NCBI GenBank assembly: GCA_963827505.1
Contig: CAWHBD010000001.1
Location: 2,731,006-2,795,005, forward strand
Direction: 5' to 3'
Source: an uncultured Candidatus Rokubacteria bacterium
GTDB taxonomy: Bacteria > Methylomirabilota > Methylomirabilia > Rokubacteriales > CSP1-6
DNA length: 64,000 nucleotides
The notes beneath the pieces are model-generated. The model searched no databases. It saw only the letters and a list, made by a program, of their open reading frames with translations, and was not told the origin of the DNA. Positions within the stretch are counted from its first letter, which is position 1. Each line of letters opens with the position of its first letter. Of this stretch, positions 8,834 to 11,033 are shown piece after piece. A program made the position numbers and the translations under genes.

Positions 8834-9118
8834 TCAGGCGCGCAGGCGGGTGCGGGCGGCGGCGAAGTCGATGATCCGGGCCGGGCCGACCGAGGTCGGG
8901 GCTGGCCCGAGGATGAGGTTGGCGCGCTGCTCCAGGAACGTTTGGTCGGTGTCGATCGGGGCGCGCCCGAAGCGGCGCACGGCTCGCGCGACCTCGAGGG
9001 CGGTGAGGCGCAGGCGCCACCAGAAGGCGACCAGGCGCTGGCGCGGCGTGAGCCGGAACGCGCGACGGGTGGGCGGCTCGGCCGGCGGTGCCGGAGGGGT
9101 CAGGTAGTAAACATTCAT
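8834..9118 (-). CDS. Hypothetical protein (94 aa)
   Basis: GAAGGAG RBS, ATGA overlap with the upstream ORF, C-terminal ARIIDFAAAR. Confidence 0.6.
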   Translation of the reverse strand: MNVYYLTPPAPPAEPPTRRAFRLTPRQRLVAFWWRLRLTALEVARAVRRFGRAPIDTDQTFLEQRANLILGPAPTSVGPARIIDFAAARTRLRA

Positions 9119-9513
9119 CGCAGTCCTCGCTCCTTCATCAACGCCGACATCCGCTCCCAGGCTCCGCTCAGGACATCGTCCAGCGCGGCCTCGGCCCGAT
9201 GAGCGGCGATCGTGGCCGACACCCGGTCCCGCGTCGAGACCGCCTGCTCGGCCCGGCGACGGGCCCCGGCTGCTGCCGCGCCCAGCGTGTGCTGCGCCTG
9301 GGCCAACGCGGCGAGCACCGATTGCGCGCTGTCGAGCTGGGGGGCCAGCGCCTCCGGCCGGGCGGCCGGCTCGGCCAGTGCCAGGGTGGGCCGAGTGGGC
9401 GGCGCCGTGATCGAAGTCGCCAGCACGACCCCGGGGCGCCACAGCGCCACGGAGGGCGAGATCTCTATGCCGCGACGGGCGAGGTCGAGCGACCGGTGAC
9501 GCGGGGTCTTCAT
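9115..9513 (-). CDS. Hypothetical Ala-rich, probably helical protein (132 aa)
   Basis: ATG just downstream of a sigma-54 promoter; translationally coupled to the next ORF. Confidence 0.55.
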   Translation of the reverse strand: MKTPRHRSLDLARRGIEISPSVALWRPGVVLATSITAPPTRPTLALAEPAARPEALAPQLDSAQSVLAALAQAQHTLGAAAAGARRRAEQAVSTRDRVSATIAAHRAEAALDDVLSGAWERMSALMKERGLR

Positions 9514-9528
9514 GGTAAAGCAGTCATG

Positions 9529-9543
9529 GCAACGAGAGTGCCA
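9529..9543 (-). promoter_or_regulatory. Sigma-54 (-24/-12) promoter
   Basis: TGGCAC-TCTCG-TTGC matches the TGGCAC-N5-TTGC consensus. Confidence 0.8.
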
Positions 9544-9606
9544 CGCCAGCGCTGCGCCAAGCCCGCGGAATTATGAGACTTGGTGGATCGGCAACTTAAC
9601 TAGAAT

Positions 9607-9642
9607 GGGAGGATCTCCCTGGTGGTCCCGGGAGAACCTCCC
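9607..9642. repeat. 13-bp inverted repeat (terminator or upstream activator site)
   Basis: GGGAGGATCTCCC-N10-GGGAGAACCTCCC, immediately after the activator stop codon. Confidence 0.55.
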
Positions 9643-9644
9643 TG

Positions 9645-11033
9645 CTACTGGGCGATCTGGAAGTCGCGGATCTTCTTGTTGAGCGTCTTGATGTCCACCT
9701 CGAGGACCCGGGCCGCGCGGGCCTTGTTCCAGCCCGTCGCCTGCAGGACGCGTTCGACGTGGCGTCGCTCGATCTCGGCCAGCGGCGTCATCACCTCGTC
9801 GGCCCCGGGAGCGGGAGGACCGGTGGAGGACGGCGCCATCACGGGGGCGTCCGCCGGACCGAAGTGGAACTCGGCGGGCAGGTCGCCGGCCCGCACCTCG
9901 GGCCCCACGTGCAGGATGTGGACCCGCTCGATGAGATTGCGCAGCTCGCGGATGTTCCCGGGCCAGCCGTATTCGAACAGCCGCGCCATCGCGTCGGGTG
10001 CGAAGCGCAGGCCGGACCCGGGGCGCCCGCGCACGCCCAGGAAGTGCTCGACCAGCAACGGCACGTCAGCACGCCGATGGCGCAGCGGTGGGACCGGGAT
10101 CGCGATGGTGCTCACGCGGTAGAAGAGGTCCCAGCGGAAGCGGCCCTCGGCCGCCTCTCGCGCCAGGTCCTTGTTGGTGGCGGCCACCAGCCGGGCGTCC
10201 ACGTGGAAGATCCGCTCCTCGCCCACCCGCCGGATCTCGCCGGAGTCGAGCACGCGGAGCAGCCGCACCTGCATGGCCGGCGACATCTCGCCGATCTCGT
10301 CCAGGAACAGCGTGCCGCCGTTGGCTGCCTCGAACAGCCCGACGCGGGAGTTGATGGCGCCGCTGAACGCGCCCTTCTTGTGGCCGAACAGCTCGCTCTC
10401 CAGCAGCGTGTCGGGCAGCGCGCCACAGTTGACCGATACGAACGGGCGCGCGGCCCGGCGCGATTGCAGATGAATGCTGCGCGCCACCAGCTCCTTGCCG
10501 GTGCCGCTCTCGCCGTGCACCAGCACCGGGCTGTCGCTGGCCGCCACCCGCGTGATCATGGCCAGGACCTCGCGGATCTCCGCGCTCTCCCCCACGATCG
10601 TGGGCAGGCCCTCCCGGCGGTTGACGACCTCCTTGAGCGCGGAGTTCTCGCGCCGCAGCGCCTTCTTCTCGGCCGCCTTGGCCACCACCTCGCGCAGCTC
10701 GGCGTTCTTGCACGGCTTGGGAATGAAGTCGTAGGCGCCGAGCCGCATCGCCTGCACGGCCGTCTCGACATCGGCGTTGGCGGTGAGGACGATCAGCTCG
10801 GTGTCGATCTCGGTGGCGCGCGCCCAGCGGAGCACGTCGAGCCCGCTGTGGTCGGGCATCTGGACGTCGACGACGGCGACGTCGAACTCCTCGCGGGCGA
10901 GTAGCGCCATGCCCTCGGCGCCCGACGCCGCCTCGGTGACCCGGGCACCGGCGTCCCCCTCGAGCACGGCGCTCAGCAGGCCGCGGACGTCGGCGTCATC
11001 GTCGACGACGAGCACATGAATGGCGTTCGCCAT
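9645..11033 (-). CDS. Sigma-54-dependent response regulator (NtrC/AtoC family)
   Basis: REC (VVDVQMP), Walker [32 protein letters not shown] and a C-terminal Fis-type HTH. Confidence 0.95.

Follow-up and report, generated by a model that had tools for sequence, protein, structure and literature searches.

The locus described here lies in a 64-kb stretch of DNA (C1:2731006-2795005, hereafter the window) from the 7.0-Mb genome of an uncultured Rokubacteria bacterium. It comprises the gene of an NtrC-family activator of 462 aa (11033-9645), two tandem palindromes (9642-9630 and 9619-9607), a sigma-54 promoter core (9543-9529) and two small open reading frames (ORFs), orf132 (9513-9115, 132 aa) and orf94 (9118-8834, 94 aa). 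All of these module features are on the minus strand, and coordinates are window positions. An earlier interpretation made from the letters of this DNA (the sequence-only reading) had proposed that the activator acts through a dyad on the promoter, and that the output consists of the two small proteins. We compared the window with 21 related loci, which came from a scan that took one genome per species, and aligned 22 intergenic regions by their promoters; the 22 loci span 40-88% protein identity. A synteny search had been suggested for both ORFs, and it returned the same order throughout. uvrA is divergent from the activator gene, which is followed by orf132, at every locus with enough flanking sequence, and the activator lies upstream of orf132 in 21/21 related loci. 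At every locus extending past orf132, except L008, orf94 comes next (two loci end at or just past orf132). The homologues of the window's genes carry the labels Candidatus Rokuibacteriota or Methylomirabilota.

The promoter core, TGGCAC-N5-TTGC (TGGCACTCTCGTTGC, 9543-9529), is an exact match to the -24/-12 consensus, as the sequence-only reading had stated, and the gap to the ATG of orf132 (9513-9511) is 15 nt (9528-9514) instead of the 16 nt given there. Its GG and GC doublets are one helical turn apart, as the sigma-54 class demands. The exact motif occurs once in the window, where matches with one mismatch stay at chance level. In the whole genome we counted 53 exact sites for TGGCA[CT]-N5-TTGC versus about 18 predicted from base composition, and identical half-sites with control spacers of N3, N4, N6 or N7 gave 3-8 sites. 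This excess over other spacers indicates that the motif with the correct spacing is under selection in the genome. Among the 22 loci, TGGC and TTGC are unchanged throughout, the A at position 5 is kept in 21 and a C or T at position 6 likewise in 21. The spacer consists of three freely varying positions and a conserved CG preceding TTGC, and the flanks drift. Thus, the -24/-12 motif and the ORFs, on whose conservation in relatives the sequence-only reading had staked its proposal, are both retained. The genome also encodes the cognate sigma factor: Sigma54_DBD matches were found at C1:170686-171116 in the context lptB-rpoN-hpf-rapZ, and the N-terminal region, the core-binding region and the RpoN box (ARRTVAKYR) of rpoN are all readable, over several frames. 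The neighbouring lptB and rapZ are equally broken, for which reason we ascribe this multi-frame state to indels in the assembly.

The distance between this promoter and orf132 is short. Sigma-54 holoenzyme initiates about 12 nt past the C of the -12 element, and the geometry of its promoters is fixed. Since the -12 C sits at 9529, transcription is predicted to start near 9517 (9519-9515), which would place about 4 nt of leader ahead of the orf132 ATG (9513); across the relatives, the predicted leaders measure 2-6 nt. In 22/22 loci the start codon (21 ATG, 1 GTG) lies 13-17 nt past the C of TTGC. Between this codon and the conserved VxLWRP motif of orf132, whole-codon indels make the length vary from 21 to 30 codons, yet the two share one frame in every locus (22/22). 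This preservation of frame argues that the promoter-adjacent codon, and not a codon further downstream, is the true start. When the start codon follows the -12 element after 15 nt, neither a leader nor a ribosome-binding site can fit in between, and a predicted leader of 2-6 nt would be too short for a Shine-Dalgarno interaction. Ahead of the orf132 ATG, the window reads CATGACTGCTTTACC, with neither a purine-rich tract nor a Shine-Dalgarno sequence. Three public gene calls (P0002, P0006 and P0011, 144 aa) extend orf132 by 'MALSLP', 'MALTLP' or 'MAFALP'. The 'MALSLP' extension corresponds to ATGGCACTCTCGTTGCC, that is, to the translated -24/-12 promoter (ATGGCAC...TTGCC), which points to a systematic miscall of the start caused by a promoter that abuts the gene.

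Upstream of the promoter, the dyad reported at 9607-9642 is real, and we find it better described as two tandem 13-bp palindromes of the GGGAG-N3-CTCCC type, 23 bp apart. By symmetry and conservation, the distal palindrome (GGGAGGTTCTCCC, 9642-9630, centred at about -119 from the predicted start) and the proximal palindrome (GGGAGATCCTCCC, 9619-9607, centred at about -96) are both candidate activator sites. Counted upstream from the T of TGGCAC, the proximal palindrome starts 75-79 nt away in 21/22 loci, and the distal palindrome 95-100 nt away in most. In the aligned sequences, their distance to the activator stop codon ranges from overlap to about 22 nt. The palindromes are thus fixed relative to the promoter and not to the upstream gene, which is a requirement of enhancers, whereas terminators have none of the kind. 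Furthermore, the pair occurs only once in the 7.0-Mb genome, where lone copies are no commoner than copies with other spacers. If the pair represents the sites of the activator, the regulon would therefore consist of the present operon alone. PexR of Myxococcus xanthus binds tandem interrupted palindromes upstream of sigma-54 promoters (PMC12754779), a precedent that we count in favour of the palindromes as activator sites. Between the putative enhancer and the promoter we also noted two conserved features, a TT some 19 nt ahead of TGGCAC and a block (TTGTCGTTcttCCAAc, about 9585-9560, minus strand), with equivalents in L004-L014. When a site for integration host factor was sought in the conserved TTGTCGTTcttCCAA block of this region, no convincing match to WATCAANNNNTTR was found.

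These elements (an orphan activator, two palindromes, a sigma-54 promoter and a nearly leaderless, translationally coupled orf132-orf94 pair) probably constitute a conserved, dedicated sigma-54 unit of one soil Rokubacteria family within the Methylomirabilota. That the unit is active is suggested by its sequence conservation. The core of the sequence-only reading is supported by the constant position of the activator gene (21/21), the unchanged promoter core (22/22), the constant distance of the palindromes from the promoter and the uniqueness of their pair.

Several observations weigh against this interpretation. To begin with, the two palindromes can pair into a stable hairpin (-27.8 kcal/mol, z = -2.95) directly past the activator stop codon, 1-2 nt from it in the window, and a scan flags the structure as terminator-like, with ATTCTAGTT behind it. 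The hairpin could serve termination besides, or in place of, activator binding. On such an account, the dyad would mainly be an RNA hairpin that terminates or stabilises the activator transcript, and the promoter would depend on different sites, or on a different member of the genome's set of roughly 25 activators. In L003 the two halves even form a perfect 16-bp stem, and 33 Sigma54_activat matches in the genome leave a choice of other activators. However, the proximal site is promoter-fixed within about 2 nt while its distance to the stop codon varies. The weak T-rich tail behind the hairpin in the window has no counterpart in most relatives, which lack a T-run there. The halves are 5-N3-5 palindromes in their own right, a symmetry expected where dimers bind, their central N3 stretches are often non-complementary (AAA versus AAC in L009, for example), and positions of about -96 and -119 are typical for enhancers. 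We therefore regard a dyad that works mainly as a terminator as improbable, while a second role of the hairpin in ending the activator transcript is possible.

Against the dedicated sigma-54 unit also stands the quality of the assembly. Its four contigs (70% GC) have an estimated completeness of just 63% and contain many indel errors: rpoN, lptB and rapZ can each be read only across several frames (C1:169500-172800), several activator genes are split, and in the window uvrA switches frame at about 12,780-12,840, between the 11088 ORF and the 12832 ORF. The frame changes in the rpoN region and in uvrA are probably long-read indel errors, which would also account for a completeness of 63% at four contigs. 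Single-base spacings in the window are consequently uncertain by about 1 nt, and our spacing arguments rest on the relatives. Moreover, GAGGA or AGGAGG occurs just ahead of the orf132 ATG in L006, L014, L018 and L020. These Shine-Dalgarno-like tracts sit upstream of the predicted transcription start and would matter if longer read-through transcripts were used. Indeed, orf132-orf94 might be expressed mainly by read-through from the activator gene on a leadered mRNA, with the -24/-12 match conserved for some other reason or rarely used. Such an arrangement is compatible with the spacer of only 131 nt between activator and orf132, which holds no canonical terminator in most loci. It fits poorly with the pattern of conservation, in which exactly the sigma-54 contact bases are invariant and the spacer is variable at such protein divergence, with the genome-wide excess of N5 motifs over other spacings, and with the missing Shine-Dalgarno sequence ahead of orf132 in the window. 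Expression chiefly by read-through is hence very unlikely. Lastly, neither small protein has a family, fold or PDB match, so that their function receives no direct support.

We then asked how common a near-absent leader is among the sigma-54 promoters of this genome. Of 33 strict N5 sites with a downstream ORF rich in third-position GC, 11 have their start codon at 13-18 nt (predicted leaders of 2-7 nt), a bin in which the control spacer patterns gave 0-1 sites. Examples in this genome (G000) are C1:2244379(-), C2:799032(+), C3:814288(+), C3:1568430(-) and C4:302273(+), as well as C1:2815938(+), C3:498563(+), C1:1864702(-) and C3:44521(+). A second class, 8 of the 33, has the start codon at 25-40 nt, and several of its members possess GGAGG. 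To judge from these sequences, the near-absent leader appears to be a habit of the sigma-54 promoters of this genome. By the definition of Beck and Moll 2018 (cited in PMC12754779), the leader of a leaderless mRNA is no longer than 5 nt. Leaderless genes with an ORF-adjacent -10 box are found in Deinococcus-Thermus (PMC12340547) and Actinobacteria. They share with the present locus a promoter that abuts the start codon, a strong preference for ATG and a missing Shine-Dalgarno sequence, but there the promoters are sigma-70-type, whereas the abutting promoter of orf132 is of the sigma-54 -24/-12 type. Our search of the literature returned no description of leaderless sigma-54 transcripts or of a -24/-12 promoter abutting a start codon.

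On balance, we lean towards a wider proposal, for which the odds are slightly better than even: the sigma-54 RNA polymerase of this lineage would routinely make leaderless or nearly leaderless mRNAs, at about one third of its strong ORF-preceding sites including the present one, and the sole output of the orphan regulator would be a new two-protein regulatory complex from two families confined to one Rokubacteria family. If true, strictly activator-dependent transcription would be coupled to Shine-Dalgarno-independent translation, and leaderless sigma-54 transcripts would bear on the fit between sigma-54 start-site selection and 70S-type initiation.

The activator itself shows the domains of a response-regulator enhancer-binding protein. 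Pfam searches identified Sigma54_activat (1.4e-68), Response_reg (6.4e-28), HTH_8 (1.7e-10) and AAA_lid_14. Its translation contains the receiver residues, namely the DD acidic pocket, the phospho-acceptor D55 (VVDVQMPD), T and K (PKP), and the loop of the AAA+ domain reads GAFSGA, a Thr-to-Ser variant of GAFTGA. The best NCBIfam matches were AtoC (NF008469, 421 bits versus a cut-off of 714), NtrC (TIGR01818, 390 versus 559) and ZraR (NF007689, 366 versus 760); no named NCBIfam equivalog cut-off was reached.

No adjacent kinase had been seen for this activator, an observation which holds for the window and for the related loci: none of the 21 carries a kinase within 4 kb of the module. HATPase_c was detected only once in the window, in a hybrid kinase at 2-3457 on the plus strand, 6.2 kb off, on the opposite strand and beyond six other genes. 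This protein of 1151 aa, whose gene runs off the left end of the window, has a LapD/MoxY-type periplasmic domain, HAMP, PAS, HisKA and HATPase_c domains, up to three receiver matches and a C-terminal Hpt domain. In principle, an orphan regulator could be supplied by a kinase that bears an Hpt domain. As a conserved cognate partner, however, we rejected it: an orthologue near the module was found only in the closest relative, G131, and at E 1e-80 there was no match in G132 and G133, two near-complete, congeneric genomes that both carry the module. By synteny, then, the activator is a genuine orphan. Since its receiver retains all phospho-acceptor residues, it would need an unlinked kinase. The description of the module as self-contained thus applies to its DNA parts and not to its signalling.

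The two output genes show coding-type third-position GC (86% in orf132, 91% in orf94) and have homologues at the protein level. They were correctly described as coupled, with an ATGA stop/start overlap at 9118-9115. The GAAGGAG previously named as the ribosome-binding site of orf94 is present at 9136-9130 (minus strand), but GAGGA at 9128-9124, 5 nt ahead of the orf94 ATG, is better spaced. It lies within the invariant ERGLR codons of orf132; R129, G130 and L131 are invariant, and the overlapping orf94 start is kept in the relatives. The window orf94 is without seven N-terminal residues (SPTNPVS) of its closest relatives, and the ATGA overlap is kept nevertheless.

orf132 encodes a protein with a basic, disordered head of 50 residues that carries the conserved motifs VxLWRPxIVLA and LAEPxxRPE; W25, P27, V30, P49 and R52-P53 are nearly invariant. 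AlphaFold2 predicted a helical hairpin (residues 53-90 and 94-128) with a predicted local distance difference test (pLDDT) score above 90, and a disordered head. For the small basic protein encoded by orf94, AlphaFold2 gave a single confident helix at residues 25-51 (the LRLLAFWWRLRLT segment) and low confidence elsewhere. Both of its ends are strongly conserved, with NVYYLxPP and a near-invariant C-terminal GPARIIDFAAARxRLR. By sequence reading, neither protein has a signal peptide or a hydrophobic segment of membrane-span length. We regard both as small cytoplasmic proteins without enzyme-like features.

At 90% identity, the homologues of orf132 fall into about 120 clusters. When 1.84 billion representative proteins were searched with a profile, 59 clusters at 50% identity were recovered and no distant relatives; all proteins found have at most 270 aa, save for one weak multi-stretch match (423 aa). 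The family occurs in 41 of 251 genomes of the phylum and in 13 of 68 genera, in one family only and always as a single copy. The two proteins had been called uncharacterised, and the homologue search agrees, finding relatives only in that family of the phylum. Searches of Pfam, NCBIfam and PADLOC with orf132 and orf94 gave nothing usable; matches to BrxC (E 0.011) and to the FbiB C-terminal domain (E 0.04) were far below cut-offs and were dismissed as noise. Profile searches of PDB sequences with both proteins yielded nothing below E 0.2. With the orf132 model, Foldseek returned only generic alpha-hairpins (MexA/AcrA hairpins, CHMP4B and designed bundles), all with E above 1, and a fold search with the orf94 model had no match. 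Small size, translational coupling and conserved linear motifs within disorder suggest a stoichiometric pair whose role is to bind some other partner, and not an enzyme or a structural protein. Judged by sequences and models, orf132 and orf94 are probably a small regulatory or adaptor pair.

Control of sigma-54 activators by proteins such as PspA and HrpV is established, and orf132 and orf94 might likewise be feedback modulators of the activator or its kinase (compare PspA on PspF, and HrpV/HrpG on HrpS), forming a self-limiting loop with no effector output. With a single copy of the enhancer pair in the genome, the activator appears to control these genes only; both proteins are small and non-enzymatic, with helices and conserved linear motifs, and the trio of activator, orf132 and orf94 is co-inherited in nearly every locus. 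We nonetheless consider a pure feedback loop unlikely, if the most serious of the alternatives. Neither Pfam, NCBIfam, PDB profiles nor Foldseek revealed sequence or fold similarity to PspA, HrpV, HrpG or another known modulator. It is also hard to see what selection would favour in a loop without further output, unless single or degenerate sites elsewhere make other genes targets of the activator, and we found no such targets. In addition, L008 kept orf132 without orf94; there, 87 nt (4357-4444) separate orf132 from perR.

For the dedicated unit with an effector output, we envisage the following course of events. Expression of the activator gene is probably constitutive and driven by an extended -10 promoter abutting its ATG (see below), and its product would be a phosphorylation-dependent response regulator of the NtrC family whose kinase is encoded elsewhere. 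Once phosphorylated, it may bind as dimers at the two GGGAG-N3-CTCCC palindromes centred near -96 and -119, oligomerise and spend ATP on opening the closed complex that sigma-54 RNA polymerase forms at TGGCAC-N5-TTGC. Transcription would begin near 9517, and ribosomes would translate orf132 from an mRNA with almost no leader and no Shine-Dalgarno sequence. Translation of orf94 would follow by coupling, through the ATGA overlap and the internal GAGGA. The two proteins would then most likely work as a stoichiometric pair, an effector of regulatory or adaptor type whose target is another cellular machine, and they would be the sole output of the activator. That the output belongs to orphan families and is the activator's only apparent target offers a handle on function. 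The proposed 13-bp palindrome, the apparent one-operon regulon and the ease of heterologous testing add to the value of a comparatively validated enhancer-promoter pair for an uncultured phylum.

The regulatory logic of activator, enhancer and sigma-54 promoter is textbook; the near-absent leader and an output of two orphan proteins only are unusual. Units of the NtrC/AtoC/ZraR type, such as glnAp2-NtrC and zraP-ZraSR, share with the present one an activator of receiver, AAA+ and HTH_8 domains, tandem dyads about 100-120 bp upstream and the TGGCAC-N5-TTGC core. As here, the main output in the case of zraP is a small non-enzymatic protein. In contrast to these units, the module has no adjacent kinase and an activator below every NCBIfam equivalog cut-off, its outputs are without known relatives or a signal peptide, and its promoter lies 13-17 nt from the start codon, so that no leader is possible. 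PspF-PspA and HrpS-HrpV/HrpG are also sigma-54 operons of small helical non-enzymatic proteins beside their activator, and the helical hairpin of orf132 recalls the one at the N-terminus of PspA. However, PspF and HrpS have no receiver domain whereas the activator described here has one, and we found no membrane partners and no sequence or fold match.

PexR offers a further comparison. It detects H2O2 by a GAF domain that binds metal, its targets are ahpC and katB, its gene adjoins peroxide-stress genes, and this gene may itself give a leaderless mRNA (PMC12754779). Unlike PexR, the activator in the window has a receiver domain and would drive two proteins without known relatives, and the neighbouring perR-rbr has its own sigma-70 promoter and Per box.

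Turning to the flanks of the unit, an extended -10-like element, TGCTATCAT (11050-11042, minus strand), lies 8 nt ahead of the ATG of the activator gene. The pattern TGnTAnnAT is kept 8-9 nt ahead of this ATG in 18 related loci and has the layout of leaderless genes with an ORF-adjacent -10 box. The divergent spacer between uvrA and the activator gene (11034-11087), which also holds the uvrA ribosome-binding site CTCAGGAGGAC on the plus strand, measures 54-56 bp and is nearly invariant over 18 loci (equivalents in L003-L021). Its sequence makes it probable that TGCTATCAT is a sigma-70-type promoter giving a leaderless activator mRNA, and the conserved TGnTAnnAT so close to the ATG suggests that the lineage uses leaderless starts.

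At the other end, the sequence-only reading had allowed for read-through into perR-rbr, which finds no support as a design. A sigma-70 promoter for perR-rbr, TTGACA-N18-TAGAAT (8823-8794, minus strand, 11 of 12 consensus positions), marks the boundary of the unit, and TTGACA-N17/18-TAnAAT is conserved in all nine perR-carrying relatives. A Fur/Per-box-like element, TGAGAATGATTCCCA (8775-8761, minus strand), overlaps the TTG and ATG start candidates of perR and is likewise conserved in nine relatives. Past orf94, L006 and L014 have clear hairpin-plus-T terminators. Moreover, perR-rbr comes next in only about two thirds of the loci, and a more distant clade has a small cytochrome c gene there instead. 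With its own conserved promoter and Per box, the terminators in two loci and its absence from a whole clade at this position, we rejected perR-rbr as an operon member. By these sequence features it is probably a separate, self-repressed sigma-70 unit, which read-through would reach at most incidentally.

Some minor observations concern the same region. For perR, the codon actually used as start may be one downstream of the listed TTG (8776), and an inverted repeat, GGAAGCGGCG...CGCCGCTTCC, spans the -10 box of perR. In L013 an extra ORF resembling a response regulator lies between orf94 and perR (4698-5169). A cytochrome c gene is also present in the window, where it lies past a block of perR-rbr, a GlpC-like gene and DUF3501.

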